Shown piece after piece: positions 8,639-64,000 of a stretch of 64,000 nt of DNA. The stretch is from Escherichia coli (GTDB taxonomy: Bacteria; Pseudomonadota; Gammaproteobacteria; Enterobacterales; Enterobacteriaceae). The notes under the pieces were generated by a model, which was given only the letters and a program-made list of their open reading frames with translations, did no database searches and was not told where the DNA came from. Location of the stretch: the NCBI RefSeq assembly GCF_017348835.2, contig NZ_CP071375.1; one strand, 5' to 3'. Positions within the stretch are counted from its first letter, which is position 1. The number at the start of each line of letters is the position of its first letter. The position numbers were made by a program, and so were the translations under genes.

Positions 8639-9679
8639 TCATTTATCGGAAGACGCCTGCCACAGATTCAGCTCGCCATCGGCGATATGCTGATCAATCT
8701 GCGCCAGCTCCTCGGTGCTAAATGTCTGATTATTCAGCGCCTGCACGTTCTCCTCAAGTTGCTCCGCGCGGCTGGCACCAATCAATACCGACGTCACGCG
8801 ATCATCTTTCAGCAACCAGCTTAACGCCATTTGCGTCATTGATTGTCCACGCTGCTGTGCCATTTCATTCAATAAGCGCAGGCTGTTGAGGTTGGCTTCG
8901 GTGAGCATTTTCGGCGTCAGGCCACGAACTTTATTCCCTTCACGATGCATCCGTGAATCTTCAGGAATGCCGTTGAGATATTTTCCGGTCAGCAATCCCT
9001 GAGCCAGAGGAGTAAAGGCAATGCAGCCCACGCCGTTATTTTGCAGGGTATCCAGCAGGCCGCTTTTATCCACCCAGCGGTTCAGTAAATTGTACGAAGG
9101 TTGATGAATTAACAGCGGAATTTTCCACTCGCGCAGTAACTCGACCATTTTTTGCGTCCGCTCAGGCGAGTAAGAGGAGATCCCGACATAAAGCGCCTTA
9201 CCGCTTTGTACCGCATGAGCCAGCGCAGAGGCGGTTTCTTCCATCGGCGTATTTTCATCGACGCGATGAGAGTAAAAGATATCGACATACTCAAGCCCCA
9301 TACGCTTCAGGCTTTGGTCGAGGCTGGCGAGCAGGTATTTACGTGAACCGCCAGAGCCGTACGGGCCGGGCCACATATCGTAGCCAGCCTTGGTAGAGAT
9401 AATCAGTTCATCGCGATAAGCGGCAAAATCCTCCCGCAGCAGGCGACCAAAGTTCTCTTCTGCGCTTCCTGGAGGCGGCCCGTAATTGTTGGCTAAATCA
9501 AAGTGCGTAATGCCCAAATCAAACGCTTTACGCAGGATCGCACGCTGTGATTCCAGCGCGTTAACGTGACCGAAATTGTGCCATAAACCGAGCGATAACG
9601 CGGGCAGGCGTAAACCACTTTTTCCGCAATAGCGGTACTGCATCTGCCCGTAACGTTCGGGATTCGCTAACCAGACCAT
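8639..9679 (-). CDS. gpr: L-glyceraldehyde 3-phosphate reductase (aldo-keto reductase)
   Basis: 346-aa ORF; translation MVWLANPERYGQMQYRYCGKSGLRLPALSLGLW recognised as Gpr (YghZ). Confidence 0.85.
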   Translation of the reverse strand: MVWLANPERYGQMQYRYCGKSGLRLPALSLGLWHNFGHVNALESQRAILRKAFDLGITHFDLANNYGPPPGSAEENFGRLLREDFAAYRDELIISTKAGYDMWPGPYGSGGSRKYLLASLDQSLKRMGLEYVDIFYSHRVDENTPMEETASALAHAVQSGKALYVGISSYSPERTQKMVELLREWKIPLLIHQPSYNLLNRWVDKSGLLDTLQNNGVGCIAFTPLAQGLLTGKYLNGIPEDSRMHREGNKVRGLTPKMLTEANLNSLRLLNEMAQQRGQSMTQMALSWLLKDDRVTSVLIGASRAEQLEENVQALNNQTFSTEELAQIDQHIADGELNLWQASSDK

Positions 9680-9835
9680 GACCTCTCCTTTCCACCGTTC
9701 AATTTCGAAACAATGTTTCTAGTTTAGCGATTCGCCAGCGCGTATCCCGTAGTCTGGCTCACAGAGTGACGAAAAATTGGGCAAAAACACGCGCTTATGC
9801 TTTGCTTAAAACAACACCAGTTGAGGAGTGCAACG

Positions 9836-10723
9836 ATGCCGCGTTTAACCGCCAAAGATTTCCCACAAGAGTTGCTGGATTACTACGACTATTACGCTCA
9901 CGGGAAAATCTCGAAACGTGAGTTCCTCAACCTTGCGGCGAAGTATGCGGTAGGCGGGATGACGGCATTAGCGTTATTTGATTTGCTCAAACCAAATTAT
10001 GCGCTGGCGACTCAGGTAGAGTTTACCGACCCGGAAATTGTTGCTGAGTACATCACGTATCCTTCGCCAAATGGTCACGGCGAGGTACGGGGTTATCTGG
10101 TGAAACCCGCAAGGATGAGCGGCAAAACGCCAGCCGTGGTGGTGGTGCATGAGAATCGTGGACTGAATCCGTATATCGAAGATGTGGCACGGCGAGTGGC
10201 GAAGGCGGGGTATATCGCCCTGGCACCTGACGGCTTAAGTTCCGTTGGAGGTTATCCGGGTAATGATGATAAAGGTCGTGAGCTGCAACAGCAGGTTGAT
10301 CCAACCAAACTGATGAATGATTTCTTTGCCGCAATTGAGTTTATGCAACGCTATCCGCAAGCGACAGGCAAAGTGGGTATTACCGGATTTTGCTATGGCG
10401 GTGGCGTATCGAACGCGGCGGCTGTCGCGTATCCGGAACTGGCCTGCGCGGTGCCGTTTTATGGTCGTCAGGCACCCACTGCCGATGTGGCGAAGATTGA
10501 AGCGCCTTTACTACTCCACTTCGCGGAACTGGACACCCGAATCAACGAGGGCTGGCCTGCTTACGAGGCGGCGTTGAAAGCCAATAATAAGGTTTATGAG
10601 GCGTATATCTATCCGGGGGTTAATCACGGATTCCATAATGATTCCACGCCCCGTTATGACAAATCTGCCGCCGATCTTGCCTGGCAAAGGACACTGAAAT
10701 GGTTCGATAAATATCTCTCCTGA
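9836..10723 (+). CDS. yghX: dienelactone hydrolase-family protein
   Basis: Track ORF 9797..10723 (308 aa); probable start at MPRLTAKDF; alpha/beta-hydrolase features; recognised as YghX; reading frame uninterrupted here. Confidence 0.7.
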   Translation: MPRLTAKDFPQELLDYYDYYAHGKISKREFLNLAAKYAVGGMTALALFDLLKPNYALATQVEFTDPEIVAEYITYPSPNGHGEVRGYLVKPARMSGKTPAVVVVHENRGLNPYIEDVARRVAKAGYIALAPDGLSSVGGYPGNDDKGRELQQQVDPTKLMNDFFAAIEFMQRYPQATGKVGITGFCYGGGVSNAAAVAYPELACAVPFYGRQAPTADVAKIEAPLLLHFAELDTRINEGWPAYEAALKANNKVYEAYIYPGVNHGFHNDSTPRYDKSAADLAWQRTLKWFDKYLS

Positions 10724-10841
10724 TAGGTTTATCTCTTACGGGATTACGTCTTAAACAAGCATGAAAAAATAGCGTGCGCAAAAGTCGTTCTTTGCCTAAA
10801 ATATTGCTATATATGATGATATATAGCGAATGAGGTGAACG

Positions 10842-11129
10842 ATGAATAACCATTTTGGTAAAGGCTTAATGGCGGGATTAAAAGCAACGCATGCCGACAG
10901 TGCGGTTAATGTGACAAAATTCTGTGCCGATTATAAACGCGGTTTTGTATTAGGCTACTCACACCGGATGTACGAAAAGACCGGAGATCGCCAGCTTAGC
11001 GCCTGGGAAGCGGGTATTCTGACGCGCCGCTATGGACTGGATAAAGAGATGGTAATGGATTTCTTTCGTGAGAATAATTCCTGTTCTACGTTGCGCTTTT
11101 TTATGGCCGGTTATCGCCTCGAAAATTGA
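10842..11129 (+). CDS. yghW: DUF2623-family small protein
   Basis: 95-aa ORF in the position of yghW upstream of hybO; recognised from memory with moderate certainty. Confidence 0.7.
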
Positions 11130-23387: not shown

Positions 23388-24274
23388 TGCCACTGCTGGA
23401 TAAGCTGCGTGAGCAGTACGGGGTCGGACCGGTATGCAGCGAACTGCATATTGCCCCGTCAACGTATTACCATTGTCAGCAACAGCGACATCATCCGGAT
23501 AAACGCAGTGCCCGTGCGCAGCACGATGACTGGCTGAAGAAAGAGATACAGCGCGTATACGATGAAAATCACCAGGTATACGGTGTGCGTAAAGTCTGGC
23601 GTCAGTTGTTACGGGAAGGTATCAGAGTGGCCAGATGCACTGTGGCACGTCTCATGGCAGTTATGGGACTTGCCGGTGTTCTCCGGGGTAAAAAGGTCCG
23701 CACTACCGTCAGCCGGAAAGCCGTTGCCGCATGCGACCGCGTAAACCGTCAGTTCGTGGCAGAACGTCCAGACCAGTTGTGGGTGGCTGATTTTACCTGG
23801 GTAAGCACATGGCAGGGCTTCGTTTATGTGGCGTTCATCATTGATGTGTTCGCCGGATACATCGTGGGATGGCAGGTCTCATCATCCATGGAAACAACAT
23901 TCGTGCTGGATGCACTGGAGCAGGCGTTGTGGGCCCGTCGGCCGTCCGGCACAATCCATCACAGTGATAAAGGTTCTCAGTATGTATCGCTGGCCTACAC
24001 GCAGCGGCTTAAGGAAGCCGGATTACTGGCATCAACAGGGAGTACTGGCGACTCGTATGACAACGCGATGGCTGAGAGCATCAATGGTCTTTACAAAGCG
24101 GAGGTAATACACCGTAAGAGCTGGAAAAACCGGACAGAAGTGGAACTGGCCACACTAACGTGGGTGGACTGGTATAACAATCGACGATTGCTGGAAAGGC
24201 TGGGCCATATTCCTCCGGCAGAAGCAGAAAAAGCTTATTATGCTTCCATCGGAAATAATGATCTGGCAGCCTGA
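23387..24274 (+). CDS. IS3-family transposase OrfB (DDE catalytic domain; normally expressed as OrfAB fusion by -1 frameshift)
   Basis: 295-aa ORF overlapping OrfA stop in -1 frame; DDE-type integrase-core features (…HSDKGSQYVS…); A-rich run ggaaaaaataatg at the overlap. Confidence 0.85.
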   Translation: MPLLDKLREQYGVGPVCSELHIAPSTYYHCQQQRHHPDKRSARAQHDDWLKKEIQRVYDENHQVYGVRKVWRQLLREGIRVARCTVARLMAVMGLAGVLRGKKVRTTVSRKAVAACDRVNRQFVAERPDQLWVADFTWVSTWQGFVYVAFIIDVFAGYIVGWQVSSSMETTFVLDALEQALWARRPSGTIHHSDKGSQYVSLAYTQRLKEAGLLASTGSTGDSYDNAMAESINGLYKAEVIHRKSWKNRTEVELATLTWVDWYNNRRLLERLGHIPPAEAEKAYYASIGNNDLAA

Positions 24275-24366
24275 GTTCACAGATAAAACACTCTCCAGGA
24301 AACCCGGGGCGGTTCAGTATAATGCCACTGCATAACTGATTCCCATTTCGTAGAGGCTGTTAACTC

Positions 24367-24398
24367 TGTATCAAAGTCCTGACAAAGGACTGTATCAA
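24367..24398. promoter_or_regulatory. Operator-like composite repeat upstream of the 534-aa orphan gene
   Basis: tgtatcaa AGTCCT gacaa AGGACT gtatcaa: 6-bp palindromic arms flanked by direct tgtatcaa repeats, about 50 bp upstream of the ATG; function inferred only. Confidence 0.3.
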
Positions 24399-24445
24399 GT
24401 TTCTCTACTGAAACAGCTATGCAATAGACGGAAGAATTTAACATT

Positions 24446-26050
24446 ATGGTAACTAAAAAGGTAAAAACAAACCACCCGTACTATCGTGTTTTATCTGGCA
24501 CCTCCATGCCGTTTCCCCACATACATGAAGCTGTTTCCGAACAGTTGCTTCTACTCATTTTCAAAGCACGCAGATTGTATCTGGATCCAGAATATCGTCC
24601 CTGGTTTGATGAACAACATCGGATTCTCTCGGCATTACGCGCTAACACAAAACTACAAAATATTTTAGAGCAAAATAGAGAGGACTACTCCATAGGTGAG
24701 ACCGATAATCCACTATCTAAAGAGCTGTATGCTGCTTTTCAGGTTATGTGCCATTTATACAATGGTTTTGATAACAGACTCGTCAGCCTGAAAACCTGGG
24801 GAGATATGAACAGGGAACCAACAGCAAAATTTGTCGGCCAAAATAGTGGTGGCTGGAAAACACCTGAGATGGAAGAATTCGTCAGAAACGATTTGTTCAA
24901 TATTCTGACAGATTGCAAAGCTCATTGCTCACCACTTCCCGCTCTGGTTCGACAAGGATATTGCCATCAGGATCTTTCTGTTGCGCACTCATGTACTAAA
25001 GAATTACTGGAACAACTGAACCGATACCATCAAATTGATGAATCAGCGATACTTGCCAGAACCCTTGGTTTGGCTATTAACAACTGCTATCACTCAAAAA
25101 CAGAGATTCCTGAATGGCTTTCTCCTTTTGAAAATGAATACAAAAGTCCCTGGAATTGTGAGAAACCAGATACTAACGATGTGAGTAAACTTAGAAAACA
25201 ATTGCTAACAATCGGGCGTACAGAATTCGTGGACAAAATGTTTTCGCTAGCCAACAAAAATGCAACAAAGATAATATATGATGGATACGTTAAACTTTAT
25301 GCTCTGGAAATATATGAATGGTTAAATAAATTAGTGCAATATTTTAAAGGAAATGATTTTATTCGTTACACCTGGAAATTCACAACAATTATTTCCGATG
25401 AAAGTGACACGATTGAAAACACCACCGCATGGGAAAAAGACTATTGTCAAATCACTATACAGCGCGATGAACTTCTGAAACTGATTTATACCAATACCCT
25501 GCAGGATGCAGCAATGAATCTTGCTGGTTGCCTGCAACAGGCATACATAGAACCGTTAAAAAGGGAAATAAATTATCCAGGAATAAACATTGATGCAAAA
25601 GAGCGTGAAATTAGAAAATCTATTGAATTCAGGAGCGAACTGAATAACTTCACAAACATCATGAAACAACTGGAAACATTTGAAAAATGGTATAATGCCA
25701 ATAAAATTCTGTTGGTAAGTAACAAAAAGAAACGTACAGAAAAGATTGACGTGAATATTCGTCTTGCAGGACTGAAAGGCTATGATCTGAATGAAGGTAT
25801 ACCTGATGGTCAGGGACGCAAAATTAAAGATGGTGTGAATGAACTCGTCAAGGCAGATGGCAGTCTACAACTTCCACAAGATATCAGTGACACTTCGCTT
25901 AACCGTTACCGTCAAGCAGTTCAACACATTATTAAGGATGAGATCGACACGTTGCTGATAGCACAGAGGGAAAAAAATAAAATAAATCCATATAGCGAAG
26001 ATAGATACTCTATACGACCTTTATGGGGAAAATGTCTGGTCGAACAGTAA
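24446..26050 (+). CDS. hypothetical protein, 534 aa, no recognisable family (orphan accessory gene; AT-rich)
   Basis: Long uninterrupted ORF in visibly AT-rich DNA; no P-loop, no transmembrane segments, no signal peptide by eye; Cys/His cluster CKAHC...GYCH...HSC near residues 155-185; not recognised as any K-12 protein. Confidence 0.6.
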   Translation: MVTKKVKTNHPYYRVLSGTSMPFPHIHEAVSEQLLLLIFKARRLYLDPEYRPWFDEQHRILSALRANTKLQNILEQNREDYSIGETDNPLSKELYAAFQVMCHLYNGFDNRLVSLKTWGDMNREPTAKFVGQNSGGWKTPEMEEFVRNDLFNILTDCKAHCSPLPALVRQGYCHQDLSVAHSCTKELLEQLNRYHQIDESAILARTLGLAINNCYHSKTEIPEWLSPFENEYKSPWNCEKPDTNDVSKLRKQLLTIGRTEFVDKMFSLANKNATKIIYDGYVKLYALEIYEWLNKLVQYFKGNDFIRYTWKFTTIISDESDTIENTTAWEKDYCQITIQRDELLKLIYTNTLQDAAMNLAGCLQQAYIEPLKREINYPGINIDAKEREIRKSIEFRSELNNFTNIMKQLETFEKWYNANKILLVSNKKKRTEKIDVNIRLAGLKGYDLNEGIPDGQGRKIKDGVNELVKADGSLQLPQDISDTSLNRYRQAVQHIIKDEIDTLLIAQREKNKINPYSEDRYSIRPLWGKCLVEQ

Positions 26051-26062
26051 CTCACTGAGAAA

Positions 26063-26085
26063 GGGGATAGCAGTTCGCTATCCCC
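26063..26085. terminator. Hairpin between the convergent orphan genes
   Basis: ggggatagc agtt cgctatcccc inverted repeat seen directly; no U-tract. Confidence 0.35.
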
Positions 26086-26132
26086 AAGGGAGACTTTCCA
26101 GCAAGATCTCAAAAAACGAGACACTCGGCAAA

Positions 26133-26729
26133 TTATGCGGCTTTACCATTAACAGATTCAGCCACAAGAACGACAGCGTGTCTGTTTCGCTCAGGATGTT
26201 CACTCCAGATTTCTGATTCCGGGATGCTTTTCCCGTCATAACTGATCCGTTCGCCATCAAACGGGTAATACCGTGCGGAATCAGTATCTAAAATAAACAC
26301 CTTCAGATTCGTTGAACGACGCGCAATATGCTGCCAGAGAGCTTTACCTCCTTCATATTGCTCGTTATCACTTAATAGTACAACGCCCGCTTTTGTGACT
26401 ATCGTTTCATAAACAAACGTTGCAAGACCAACATCACGTACAGCGCCATCGACAACAATCCCTTCAATCTGAGCAACATCCTGTTCTTCCCAGAATTTCT
26501 GGACAAACACGCCTTCAAGCCGGGGACGACGCTGAAGCTCCAGAGTGGCAACAACCTTATGGCGAACATCACCATCAATAACAGAAGGTGCAGCTTCGAT
26601 TACCGCAGCAAACGGAGTCTTTGGATCCCAGATGATCTGGTAAAGCACGCCCTGAATAGTTACTCCATCCAGTATCGAAAAACGACGAGCTACAGTAGCA
26701 GGGGAGTAAGACATTGGAATTACAGCCAT
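26133..26729 (-). CDS. hypothetical protein, about 198 aa (orphan accessory gene)
   Basis: Track ORF 26133..26759 starts at a GTG; the downstream ATG at 26729 (MAVIPMSYSPATVARR) is preceded by a good Shine-Dalgarno (agagggga) and is preferred; soluble protein with no recognisable motif; same strand as integrase. Confidence 0.55.
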   Translation of the reverse strand: MAVIPMSYSPATVARRFSILDGVTIQGVLYQIIWDPKTPFAAVIEAAPSVIDGDVRHKVVATLELQRRPRLEGVFVQKFWEEQDVAQIEGIVVDGAVRDVGLATFVYETIVTKAGVVLLSDNEQYEGGKALWQHIARRSTNLKVFILDTDSARYYPFDGERISYDGKSIPESEIWSEHPERNRHAVVLVAESVNGKAA

Positions 26730-26858
26730 TTTTGAATCCCCTCTGAGTAATACCGGCACGAAAATTTACCTCAATAATTATAGTAAACAATACAAGAACC
26801 AAGTGCATCAACAATACCCATCAATTGTACACAATTCGTACAGCGACCAGGAACTCCC

Positions 26859-28175
26859 TCACCTTCTGCCAAACAGATTGACAACATTATTGCCTGTTTG
26901 CTGTTGATAGTTATTAACCCGGTCCTCCCAGATCTCAAGTGCTCTGCGTTTTTCTGGCAAATAATCGTATCGATCATAATGTTTTGAACTGACATCGTTC
27001 AACGCATGATTTTGAATACGATCGCGGATTTCCTTACTGATCCCAGCTTCTCCCATTAACGTTTTACAGGTCCGACGTAAGTCACGTGCTGTAAAAATTT
27101 TAAAGTCAGGATTAAAAGCCCGGAAATACATGATAGCGCGAGCCAGACTGTCCGTACGAACCGGACGCTTACCATTAGTCGAAAGTGGAAAAATGTAAGG
27201 GCTGGATTTTTCTTTTGTTAACTCCTGCACACAGGATAATTCCTGTAATGCTGATTCAGTCAACGGTATCAAATGCTCTCGTTTATTTTTAGAGACATCA
27301 GCAGTCACCAGCAGCGTTTTTTGTTGAAAATCAACATCACACCACTGACTGGCGATCATTTCGAAGGGACGTTGCCCTCCGGTATAGATACAGAATCGGA
27401 TCAAATGTTGCATCAATAATCCAACGTTGGTTGCTTCAGCAAAATGTTCCATTAGAAAACGCAACTCTTCAAGTGTCAGCCAGGTATCACCGACTTTTTC
27501 AGCAGATGACTGTTTCGGTATCACTGACACCGGATTTGCCTCCAGCCCAAAAGTAATCCCTGCACTTGTGTTCATCGGATCGTTATCTGCTTTCAGTCCA
27601 TAGTTAAATGCAGCCATCAGGTAAGAACGGATCCGGTTAGAGTGAACCACAGCACCACGCTGAATGATCCCGGCCAGGATATGTTTAATCTGTCCGGAAG
27701 TCACATCTTTAGCTTTAGTTTCACGGGGGATCACTGTATAGCATTCATTTTCAAGGCGTTTCAGAACATCCTGCCATGTCCTCTTATTATCAATTTTCAT
27801 TTTGTTAACATAACCATGAATCAATGCTTCAAATGAGCCCTGTGATTGATGGAGTTGTATCCGCTGCTGTTCTGCAAACTGTTGTCGTTCCAGTTCTGCC
27901 TGGGGATCCTTTCCTTCAATGAGCCAGGCACCATACTTTTTTGCCAGTTCATTCGCTGTGGCCAGTTTCATCTCAGGCCATATACCCAATTGAATGAATC
28001 TTTCTTTTTTCCCTTTTTCCACGTAATAGCGGAAATAGAAAATCTTGCTGCCAGAAGACTGAACTTTGACACCAAGTCGTCCAGTGCCACGTTGAGAGCT
28101 GTTGCTCCAGACATAGAACGATGTCTTTTTTGCTTTCAATGCTCGGATGGCTGTTTCAGTAAGATTGACGGCCAT
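26859..28175 (-). CDS. int: site-specific tyrosine recombinase, P4-type integrase (N-terminal arm-binding DUF4102-like domain)
   Basis: 438-aa ORF; N-terminus LTETAIRALKAKKTSFYVWSN...YFRYYVEKGKKERFIQLGIWPEMKLATANE matches the P4/CP4-57 integrase pattern; C-terminal R...HxxR...Y-type catalytic region (ARDLRRTCKT, HALNDVSSKHYDRYDY); Shine-Dalgarno aagagg upstream; adjacent to tRNA fragment. Confidence 0.85.
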   Translation of the reverse strand: MAVNLTETAIRALKAKKTSFYVWSNSSQRGTGRLGVKVQSSGSKIFYFRYYVEKGKKERFIQLGIWPEMKLATANELAKKYGAWLIEGKDPQAELERQQFAEQQRIQLHQSQGSFEALIHGYVNKMKIDNKRTWQDVLKRLENECYTVIPRETKAKDVTSGQIKHILAGIIQRGAVVHSNRIRSYLMAAFNYGLKADNDPMNTSAGITFGLEANPVSVIPKQSSAEKVGDTWLTLEELRFLMEHFAEATNVGLLMQHLIRFCIYTGGQRPFEMIASQWCDVDFQQKTLLVTADVSKNKREHLIPLTESALQELSCVQELTKEKSSPYIFPLSTNGKRPVRTDSLARAIMYFRAFNPDFKIFTARDLRRTCKTLMGEAGISKEIRDRIQNHALNDVSSKHYDRYDYLPEKRRALEIWEDRVNNYQQQTGNNVVNLFGRR

Positions 28176-28371
28176 AGAACCTCTTTTCTAAACCAGTAAC
28201 AATCAGAATAACTCGTGATTTTGGGTCAGGTAATGGGTCAGGTAACGATCGTACAATGAAGAAAAAACGGAACCAAGCGGAGACAGAGAAAATTACATAA
28301 TTCATTGATTATAAACAACTAATAAAGCAATCGCGAACAAACAAAAACAATATAGAACGAACTTGCCTCAT

Positions 28372-28418
28372 GACTCATAATCGCTTGGTCGCTGGTTCAA
28401 GTCCAGCAGGGGCCACCA
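28372..28418 (+). tRNA. ileX: tRNA-Ile2 (ileX, anticodon CAU/LAU) 3'-terminal 47-nt fragment; island attachment-site repeat, not a complete tRNA gene
   Basis: GACTCATAATCGCTTGGTCGCTGGTTCAAGTCCAGCAGGGGCCACCA matches the anticodon loop through CCA end of ileX as I recall it; the sequence 5' of it cannot pair with the acceptor 3' strand (no GGCCCCT), so the D-arm and 5' acceptor are absent. Confidence 0.7.
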
Positions 28419-28427
28419 GATACAGTA

Positions 28428-28461
28428 AAGGCTGACGAGAAATCGTCAGCCTTTTTCTTTT
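28428..28461. terminator. Rho-independent terminator (native ileX terminator, also downstream of yqjH)
   Basis: aaaggctgacga gaaa tcgtcagccttt hairpin followed by tttcttttc. Confidence 0.6.
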
Positions 28462-28471
28462 CATATATCAG

Positions 28472-29236
28472 TTACTTCGCGTGCCAGTAAGCCGCTGCAC
28501 GTACCTGTTGAGGGTCATACTGTTCCGCTTCAAAGCGACGGCTTAAATTCTTCACCACCTTCCCTTCGCCGGTTATCCAGATGAAGTAATCATCGGCAGG
28601 GATTTGCATCTGCGCCAGACGCGCATCTACCGCCTGCTCATCATGTGCCAGCCATTCGATATTAAAACCATCAAGGTGCGCGAGATAATCCTGACAGGCG
28701 TTATCCCGCACGCTAACCAGCGCGCTAACTTGCGGTTTAACGGCAAGTTTGCTCAACGTTTCCAGGCGGCGGCGCAGTGCGGGCATTCCGGATTCATCGC
28801 AGACATACAGCTGATACGCGTAATCTTCCGGCACCACCAGCGAACCGCGCGGACCTGCCACCGTGAGTTTATCGCCCGGTTGGGCCTGCATTGCCCAGCT
28901 ACTGGCGACGCCGTCTTCGTGAATAAAGAAATCAATCGCCAGTTCATGGCGTAGTTCGTCATACAACGGCGTATAGTCACGCGACGGTGGGCGTGGTCCT
29001 TCCGGCCAGACGATGCCCTCTTCCGTTACCGTTGGCGGCACAAAGTGAGCGTCAGGTTGAGGAAAGAAGAGTTTGCTGTGATCGTCAAAGCCGCGCGATG
29101 TAAAACCGTCCAGCGCCTCGCCGCCAAGGACAATGCGCTGAAAACCGGCGCTGATACGCTCAACGCGTAGCACAGTCAGTTCACGGAACCGCAGATCATT
29201 GCGAACGCGCTGCGGGTAGCGGGGGGTGTTATTCAT
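28472..29236 (-). CDS. yqjH: siderophore-interacting / NADPH-dependent ferric-chelate reductase
   Basis: 254-aa ORF; recognised as YqjH (NfeF); FAD-binding siderophore-interacting family. Confidence 0.85.
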   Translation of the reverse strand: MNNTPRYPQRVRNDLRFRELTVLRVERISAGFQRIVLGGEALDGFTSRGFDDHSKLFFPQPDAHFVPPTVTEEGIVWPEGPRPPSRDYTPLYDELRHELAIDFFIHEDGVASSWAMQAQPGDKLTVAGPRGSLVVPEDYAYQLYVCDESGMPALRRRLETLSKLAVKPQVSALVSVRDNACQDYLAHLDGFNIEWLAHDEQAVDARLAQMQIPADDYFIWITGEGKVVKNLSRRFEAEQYDPQQVRAAAYWHAK

Positions 29237-29258
29237 TGTTATCGCCTTCGTGATGGTA

Positions 29259-29274
29259 ATCAGATATATCTAAA
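29259..29274. promoter_or_regulatory. AGATATATCT palindrome, candidate YqjI (NfeR) operator, yqjH-proximal copy
   Basis: Perfect 10-bp palindrome at 29262..29271; a second copy lies at 29492..29501 near yqjI; PadR-type YqjI is known to repress both genes (established), assignment of these exact sites is inference. Confidence 0.4.
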
Positions 29275-29284
29275 TAAAACTCGC

Positions 29285-29315
29285 AAATGATAATGATTGT
29301 TAATCATGATAAATG
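29285..29315. promoter_or_regulatory. Fur box-like sequence in yqjH promoter
   Basis: aaatgataatgattgttaatcatgataaatg closely resembles GATAATGATAATCATTATC consensus; yqjH is Fur-regulated (established). Confidence 0.5.
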
Positions 29316-29349
29316 CAAGCGATTTGTAGAACTGATATGTCTATAGTCT

Positions 29350-29430
29350 GATAAGACGAACCGCCTCTTCTCAGGCATCATTACTCAACGCCGGATGCGG
29401 CGTGAACGCCTTATCCGGCCTACGTGTGAG
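29350..29430. repeat. REP element
   Basis: gccggatgcggcgtgaacgccttatccggcctac motif; approximate coordinates. Confidence 0.6.
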
Positions 29431-29473
29431 ATGAGTCCACGTTTAAAAATCATTTTTACACTTGCAAGAGCTC

Positions 29474-29506
29474 TCATATCAGATATAAATTAGATATATC
29501 TAATTA
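29474..29506. promoter_or_regulatory. AGATAT-repeat palindromes, candidate YqjI autoregulatory operator
   Basis: tcatatcagatataaattagatatatctaatta: repeated AGATAT half-sites just upstream of the yqjI Shine-Dalgarno. Confidence 0.4.
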
Positions 29507-29523
29507 AGCAAAAGGAGGCTGAT

Positions 29524-30147
29524 ATGAGCCATCATCACGAAGGGTGTTGTAAACATGAAGGCCAGCCACGCCATGAGGGCTGCTGCAAAGGTGAGAAGTC
29601 AGAACACGAGCACTGCGGACACGGTCACCAGCATGAACACGGTCAATGCTGCGGTGGTCGCCACGGTCGCGGCGGCGGTCGTCGACAACGTTTCTTTGGT
29701 CACGGTGAATTGCGTCTGGTGATTCTGGATATTCTCTCGCGCGATGACAGCCACGGTTACGAATTGATTAAAGCGATTGAGAATCTAACCCAAGGGAATT
29801 ACACCCCAAGCCCGGGCGTCATCTACCCGACGCTGGATTTTCTGCAGGAGCAGTCGCTGATTACCATCCGCGAAGAGGAAGGTGGTAAGAAGCAGATTGC
29901 GCTGACCGAACAAGGCGCGCAGTGGCTGGAAGAAAACCGCGAACAGGTGGAGATGATTGAAGAACGCATCAAAGCGCGTTGCGTTGGCGCTGCGCTGCGC
30001 CAGAACCCGCAAATGAAGCGGGCGCTGGATAATTTTAAAGCGGTGCTGGATTTACGCGTCAACCAGAGTGATATCACTGATGCACAAATAAAAAAGATCA
30101 TTGCGGTGATCGACCGCGCCGCTTTTGATATTACGCAACTGGATTAA
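29524..30147 (+). CDS. yqjI: PadR-family metal-responsive transcriptional repressor with His/Cys-rich N-terminal tail
   Basis: 207-aa ORF; N-terminus MSHHHEGCCKHEGQPRHEGCCKGEKSEHEHCGHGHQHEHGQCCGG; recognised as YqjI (NfeR). Confidence 0.85.
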   Translation: MSHHHEGCCKHEGQPRHEGCCKGEKSEHEHCGHGHQHEHGQCCGGRHGRGGGRRQRFFGHGELRLVILDILSRDDSHGYELIKAIENLTQGNYTPSPGVIYPTLDFLQEQSLITIREEEGGKKQIALTEQGAQWLEENREQVEMIEERIKARCVGAALRQNPQMKRALDNFKAVLDLRVNQSDITDAQIKKIIAVIDRAAFDITQLD

Positions 30148-30149
30148 TC

Positions 30150-30250
30150 ACCGATTGCCGGATGCGGCGTACCCTACACACCCCGTAGGCCTGATAAGAT
30201 GCGCCAGCATCGCATCAGGCATTGTGCTCCAACCGCCGGATCCGGCATAC
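30150..30250. repeat. REP elements
   Basis: gccggatgcggcgtaccc...taggcctgataagatgcgccagcatcgcatcaggc motifs; approximate coordinates. Confidence 0.6.
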
Positions 30251-30253
30251 CGA

Positions 30254-31774
30254 TTAATGCAGCACCGTCACCGCGTCTTCCAGTCGGCTGGCGCGGTGTT
30301 TCACCATCGCCGACACCTGCGCACTCTCTTCCACCAGCTCAGCATTTTTCTGGGTGATGAGGTTAAGCTCATCCACTGCACGGGTCAGGCTGGAAAGACC
30401 ATCGGCCTGTTCCAGCGTTGAATGGCTAATCTGGGCAATCAACTGGGTGACGTTTTTCACCTGTGCCACAATATCTTCCATCGTACGTCCGGCGGCGTGT
30501 ACCTGCTGCGAACCGGATTGCACCTTATCAGCACTGGCATCAATCAGCTTGCGAATATCGTTGGCAGCATTGGCGCTGCGGCTGGCTAAATGACGCACTT
30601 CCCCCGCCACCACTGCAAAACCTTTGCCCTGTTCGCCGGCTCGCGCCGCTTCCACCGCCGCATTCAGGGCCAGAATATTGGTCTGAAACGCAATATCGTT
30701 AATCAGCGAAGTAATGGTGCCAATGCGCTGGGTACTGTCGGCGATATCGTCCATAGTCTTGATCACCGTGGTCATCGCCTCCCCGCCCTGCACTGCCGCA
30801 TTACTGGCAGTGATTGACAGTTTATCGGCAGCCGACGCCGTGGCAGAGTTCTGTTTCACCGACGCCGCCATTTGGTTCATGGTCGCCACCGTTTGCTGAA
30901 CGTTATCAACTGTCTGCTGGGTATGTTCGTTCAGTTCATCGGTGCCTTTCGCTAGCGTCTCACTGCCATTTCTGACACTGGACACCTGGCTTGAGACATC
31001 GTTAATTAGCCAACGGCACATCAGGCCAAGCTGCCCTACCGCGCGTAATGTCAGCCCCAGCTCATCGCTGCGATTCAGATGCTCAACACTATTACGCTCT
31101 CCGGTCGCCACCTTCAGCGCCTGACGGGCGACATTTTCTATCGGGCGGACAATCTGCCATTCAAAACAGGCGCTTGCCAACAATACCACTAACGCACAGA
31201 GGATATACGTCACCACCGGGGCAGCAACAAACCAAAGCATGGCCGCCAGCAAGATAAACATCAGGGTCATCACTCCACGCGCCCGCCAGCGAAGCGGTAA
31301 TGAAGGCAGTTTACCCAGCCAGCCTTTACGCACCACCAGGCCTTTATGAATACGCTTACCGGTACGTCCGGCGTTCAGCGCTTTGTACAGCGGCTCCACC
31401 GCCGCGATCTCTTCATCCGTCGCCCGGGTACGAATCGACATATAACCACTGATTTTTCCCTCGCGCACCATCGGTACCGCATTGGCCCGCCCCCAATAAT
31501 GGTCACCATTTTTGCGGCGATTTTTCACGATGCCGCTCCAGGGCTCCCCTTTTTTCAGGGTGAACCACATATCCGCAAACGCCGCTTTTGGCATATCCGG
31601 GTGACGCACCATATTGTGCGGCTGCCCCTGTAACTCTTGCAAGGTATAGCCGCTCACCTGCACAAAAGTGTCATTAGCATGAGTGATATAGCTTTGCAGA
31701 TCGGTAGTGGACATCAGAGTGGTATCGTCCGCCAGCGGGGTATTTTGCTGGGTGACATACGGATGAGAAGACAT
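30254..31774 (-). CDS. aer: aerotaxis receptor (PAS-FAD sensor, methyl-accepting chemotaxis signalling domain)
   Basis: 506-aa ORF; N-terminal PAS region and C-terminal MCP signalling domain; recognised as Aer. Confidence 0.9.
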
Positions 31775-32056: not shown

Positions 32057-33571
<1,515 letters not shown>

Positions 33572-63965: not shown

Positions 63966-64000
63966 ACAAAACATTTATATTCAATATGTTGCAATGACCG

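Follow-up and report, generated by a model that had tools for sequence, protein, structure and literature searches.

The DNA analyzed here, a 64,000-nucleotide stretch of an Escherichia coli genome that we call the window, carries on its + strand one unbroken open reading frame of 308 codons (9797..10723), running from an ATG at 9797 to a TGA stop at 10721-10723. An in-frame ATG at 9836 opens a 295-residue protein, and we consider it almost certain that this is the true start of yghX, since it follows a GAGGAG Shine-Dalgarno sequence that can be read 7 nt upstream (9823-9828, + strand), since RefSeq annotates the same DNA in strain PE164 from this codon (WP_001625980.1, 'YghX family hydrolase'), and since homologues from other genera all start with M(P/T)RLTAKDF at the corresponding position. 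The intact coding sequence, 9836..10723 on the + strand, thus comprises 295 codons plus TGA. The 13 in-frame codons that give the 308-residue reading (MLCLKQHQLRSAT; 9797..9835, + strand) precede the point at which homologues begin, hold the Shine-Dalgarno sequence and differ from strain to strain; they are probably untranslated leader and not coding. The GAGGAG itself is conserved in K-12, 19KM1776 and 1162C. A sequence-only reading of this DNA had placed an intact yghX frame of 295 or 308 residues at 9797-10723, and both the lengths and the coordinates are exact; that the frame is intact follows from the uninterrupted ORF and from family scores, given below, that lie far beyond those of a chance ORF. 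A simple promoter and terminator scan of 9600-10900 found nothing resembling a sigma-70 site on the + strand and is uninformative, the number of matches being no greater than in shuffled controls.

Profile comparisons identify the predicted protein as a YghX-family enzyme of dienelactone-hydrolase fold. Residues 3-294 align with the whole of the NCBIfam model NF041440, 'YghX family hydrolase' (positions 1-292 of 292), at 586.5 bits (E=8e-177; curated cutoff 460 bits), and residues 85-294 align with positions 2-217 of 217 in the Pfam DLH model PF01738 at 163.9 bits (E=5e-48; gathering threshold 21 bits). A second Pfam family, PF23678 ('YqhI-like'), matches residues 1-36. The dienelactone-hydrolase (alpha/beta hydrolase) domain proper, residues 85-295 (10088..10720, + strand), holds Glu106, Cys186, Asp233 and His264, with Cys186 in a GFCYG nucleophile elbow. 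Alignment with the ClcD chain 4U2C pairs C186 with position 123, D233 with D171, H264 with H202 and E106 with E36; the 4U2C chain has Ser at position 123, which we take to be the site of the Cys123 nucleophile. The Cys-His-Asp triad of the PF01738 family is therefore present in YghX at the Cys123/His202/Asp171 positions of ClcD. In a set of 26 diverse homologues (37-68% identity), D233 never varies, and conservation reaches at least 90% at both C186 and H264. By analogy with its family, YghX may be expected to hydrolyze esters or lactones in a cysteine-dependent manner.

The closest solved relative is an orthologue from E. coli O157:H7 Sakai, whose PDB 4ZV9 chain matches YghX residues 59-294 at 538 bits. 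This 2.0-angstrom crystal structure was deposited as an 'uncharacterized protein' (PMC8533429). Since the match begins at residue 59, the crystallized protein evidently lacked the 58-residue leader. Over 59-294 the two proteins are near-identical, and the alignment shown has four differences (T59A, V68F, R93K and S135N); they share family and catalytic residues, and the differences are allelic only. The O157:H7 orthologue has also been expressed and purified in soluble form, under the name 'EcoDLH', in a 2026 preprint, where it had no phosphotriesterase activity, being negative on paraoxon and FDDEP, although this would in any case be only a promiscuous activity (bioRxiv 10.1101/2025.10.30.685675). 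The next-closest solved relative, a putative dienelactone hydrolase of Klebsiella pneumoniae (PDB 3F67, E=2e-23), has a GFCxGG elbow as in YghX but is far more distant than 4ZV9 (86 vs 538 bits). ClcD, the carboxymethylenebutenolidase of Pseudomonas knackmussii (PDB 1DIN, 4U2C), shares the alpha/beta-hydrolase DLH fold at an E value of about 1e-14, and its Cys-His-Asp triad and the Glu beside the cysteine align with those of YghX. It is nevertheless distant in sequence, cytoplasmic and without a leader. Since the neighbors of yghX (gpr, yghW and the hyb operon) provide no chlorocatechol pathway context, dienelactone is unlikely to be the YghX substrate.

The same locus is broken in K-12. In NC_000913.3, yghX (b4658) is annotated as a pseudogene, with a small gene, yqhI (b4755), laid over its 5′ end, between gpr and yghW-hybO; an independent MG1655 assembly describes it as 'YghX family hydrolase, frameshifted'. 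The statement, in the sequence-only reading, that MG1655 yghX is an annotated frameshifted pseudogene was thus accurate, and the alignment with MG1655 that it proposed does locate the K-12 lesion, as two deletions instead of one. At the yghX locus K-12 and the window are 98.5% identical in nucleotide sequence, and in pairwise alignment the coding sequences differ by eight substitutions (seven synonymous, and one non-synonymous, R93K) and the two deletions. The first removes 2 bp in codon 37, the TA at 9944..9945 (+ strand; GTATGC to GTGC), and the second 1 bp in codon 157, the C at 10305 (+ strand; CCAACCAAA to CCAACAAA). With a net change of −3, codons 38-156, about 120 in all, fall in the +1 frame, and frame 0 resumes for the C-terminal 138 codons. 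One could suppose that the deletions compensate and leave a functional protein, a notion ruled out by a frame-0 stop at codon 48, at which K-12 translation from the native start ends, and by several more stops before codon 157. Both deletion sites are intact in the window, so that its yghX is not the K-12-type pseudogene allele; without either deletion, it encodes the 295-residue enzyme, and yqhI does not exist there as a gene of its own.

These lesions also account for the makeup of YqhI. The 47-residue K-12 peptide (MPRLTAKDFPQELLDYYDYYAHGKISKREFLNLAAKCGRRDDGISVV) consists of the first 36 residues of YghX followed by 11 out-of-frame residues, whose codons were created by the 2-bp deletion, and it corresponds to window positions 9836-9979. 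The Pfam 'YqhI-like' family, 36 positions long, is likewise the leader found at the N terminus of full-length YghX proteins. A 2018 paper reported YqhI as a new small protein, placed between 'yghX_2' and gpr (PMC6001520), and its translation in K-12 has been detected by tagging and by ribosome profiling (PMC6001520, PMC11429745). It has since been studied among small proteins induced by low Mg2+, where the growth defect of a yqhI deletion was not complemented by the peptide; that study makes no mention of yghX (PMC11429745). The small-protein literature may have overlooked the relation of YqhI to YghX. The simple reading of the sequences is that YqhI is the remnant of a broken gene, yghX, in which case YqhI studies on K-12 should be read as work on a truncated YghX N-terminus.

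Outside E. coli, 295-residue orthologues with both Pfam domains and 85-92% identity occur in Citrobacter koseri, Pseudescherichia, Enterobacter, Kosakonia, Leclercia and others, and neither Y37 nor K158 varies among them. Because these orthologues are full length, the K-12 state is derived and the intact state ancestral. Within the species, we drew on 5,426 complete genomes, 5,415 of which hold at least 80% of the yghX region. The exact K-12 junction of the 2-bp deletion is present in 1,247 of the 5,426 (about 23%) and that of the 1-bp deletion in 1,197; sampled carriers include many natural isolates (human, pig and cattle) as well as laboratory strains. An evenly spaced sample returned 39 full-length matches, 27 with undisturbed coding length and 12 frameshifted. 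An intact yghX is the usual state of E. coli, found in about 70% of this systematic sample, and is a weak strain marker and no surprise. Since an inactivating lesion is carried by about 30% of sampled genomes, the gene appears to be dispensable in some lineages. In strain AVS0467, whose yghX is flagged as frameshifted, only the 2-bp deletion is present; this allele is consistent with the 2-bp deletion having arisen first and is a likely intermediate toward that of K-12. Other lesions are independent: IAL7252 has an additional A at window position 10076, either a genuine change or a homopolymer sequencing error, and NCTC9041 has lost yghX save for the final 174 bp of the region queried, at its 3′ end, adjoining an IS1. 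In the latter strain, which like AVS0467 and IAL7252 is a natural isolate, the IS1-adjacent 3′ remnant has moved beside mdtM.

We hold with high confidence that positions 9836-10723 are the intact ancestral allele of yghX, encoding a two-part 295-residue enzyme, and that the K-12 copy was inactivated in two steps. The enzyme would consist of a leader (residues 1-58), which may be a Lys-Arg variant of a Tat signal that delivers the mature protein to the periplasm, and a DLH-fold alpha/beta hydrolase (residues 59-295) that would cleave an ester or lactone bond; its nucleophile would be Cys186, its base His264 and the third member of its triad Asp233, with Glu106 beside the cysteine as in ClcD. 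In the lineage of K-12, the 2-bp deletion in codon 37 would have come first and the 1-bp deletion in codon 157 second, an order with which AVS0467 is consistent, leaving as the product from the native start the 47-residue YqhI with its 36 leader and 11 out-of-frame residues.

It is conceivable, though unlikely, that the frame in the window strain is intact but silent or decaying, a cryptic gene kept by chance. The several independent inactivations in E. coli, the lack of any function on record, and the failure of our simple scan to find a promoter-like site upstream on the + strand would all fit such a history. Against it, however, stand the signs that selection has long acted on the protein. 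The dN/dS ratio (Nei-Gojobori) is 0.04-0.07 when the window allele is compared with two divergent intact alleles; relative to strain 1162C, for example, the window allele shows 38 synonymous and 6 non-synonymous differences, the latter all conservative. Intact yghX alleles, in other words, are under purifying selection, and the full-length identity in other genera and the intact catalytic residues point the same way. Moreover, since the same start is translated in K-12 as YqhI (PMC6001520, PMC11429745), the yghX promoter and ribosome-binding site are evidently active. The suggestion of the sequence-only reading that this strain may keep a functional copy is accordingly supported, insofar as the conserved triad, the dN/dS values and the full-length orthologues can speak to function. 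One position in the allele sets it apart: codon 93 (10112-10114) is Arg in the window and PE164 and Lys in K-12, in O157:H7 (4ZV9), in the other E. coli alleles examined and in all other genera aligned. Arg93 of the PE164 allele is a conservative, lineage-specific substitution.

It is very improbable that the intact allele is secondary, derived from a K-12-like frameshifted ancestor by recombination with an intact donor. E. coli recombines often, and a difference from K-12 of only eight substitutions in the coding sequence might be taken to suit a repair of this kind; nothing requires it, however, the outgroup genera are intact, and intact alleles span the full diversity of E. coli, down to 95.5% identity, whereas the K-12 lesions sit in one narrow class at about 98.5%. 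The prospect that the difference between the window and K-12 is an artefact of K-12 sequencing or annotation errors, or of window assembly errors, is negligible, for although small indels are typical of sequencing errors and the additional A of IAL7252 could be one, both deletions are identical in NC_000913.3 and the independent MG1655 assembly and recur in about 1,200 complete genomes, many of them natural isolates, which refutes sequencing error as the source of the K-12 lesions, and the intact sequence is found in thousands of genomes and matches the crystallized protein.

The N-terminal part of the intact protein deserves separate consideration. The leader (residues 1-58; 9836..10009, + strand) is near-invariant across Enterobacteriaceae and comprises a conserved, acidic and aromatic n-region of 25 residues (with LLDYYDYYAH), the motif S26-K-R-E-F-L31, a weakly hydrophobic core and a putative signal-peptidase site at A56-L-A58. 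Residues 26-58 (9911-10009) thus form a Tat-signal-like segment behind an n-region that is unusually conserved. Tat signals follow the pattern S/T-R-R-x-F-L-K, then a mildly hydrophobic h-region, then A-x-A. Set against that pattern, YghX offers S-K-R-E-F-L, with KR and not RR, a core whose maximum Kyte-Doolittle mean over 15 residues is 1.55, and A56-L-A58, after whose last alanine the protein might be cleaved. Distant homologues mostly carry R-R in place of this K-R (D/S-R-R-x-F-L), with R28 and F30 at least 90% conserved. Two features count against export: the KR motif in E. coli itself, and the 25-residue conserved n-region, which is unusual for a signal peptide. To judge from these sequence features, the case that YghX is a Tat-exported periplasmic enzyme is about evenly balanced; alternatively, the leader could anchor the protein in the membrane, or could have a regulatory role or bind a chaperone. 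When the literature was searched for a dienelactone hydrolase exported by Tat, the only matches were genome papers in which the terms co-occur by chance.

We speculate, and somewhat doubt, that the whole of a larger proposition holds, namely that YghX is an overlooked E. coli Tat substrate with a Lys-Arg motif and a long conserved n-region and that YqhI is merely its truncated leader peptide. If it does, a Tat substrate would have escaped notice because K-12, the reference strain, has the pseudogene only, and the roughly 70% of E. coli with an intact yghX would not make YqhI as a product of its own.

In a larger context, the intact frame is a correct but ordinary observation, since the gene is already known and annotated and a structure exists for a near-identical protein. 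Only mildly new are the two-step history of the K-12 lesions, the recognition of YqhI as the leader of YghX, and the possibility of a Tat signal of KR type. A practical point concerns strain construction. In the engineering of W3110/K-12, yghX is regularly described as a pseudogene and serves as a neutral site for integration (e.g., PMC7677707); the neutrality of this site should not be assumed in strains with an intact gene.

The window is identical at 63,999 of its 64,000 positions to DNA of E. coli PE164, a pig isolate from China. It corresponds in reverse-complement orientation to NZ_CP114128.1 630522-694521, and the single mismatch, at window position 32807, lies inside ygjG (putrescine aminotransferase). 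The claim that this strain is not MG1655 is thereby confirmed. The window does not come from the K-12 lineage and the route by which K-12 lost yghX is now documented exactly, which in itself matters little. Elsewhere in the window, at 22756-28175 (context 21208-29236), the gene order differs from that of K-12: after pitB come a 5′-truncated yghT (dTMP kinase) fragment, an IS3-family element, two hypothetical genes, and a tyrosine integrase abutting nfeF (yqjH). By K-12 gene numbers, we take this arrangement to join b2986 directly to b3070. A search of window positions 20000-31000 for tRNA genes found none; in strain H202 a tRNA-Ile is annotated beside nfeF. The pitB-to-nfeF arrangement, which is present in 3 of the 5,426 complete genomes, looks like an island- or IS3-associated rearrangement and is possibly an inversion breakpoint.
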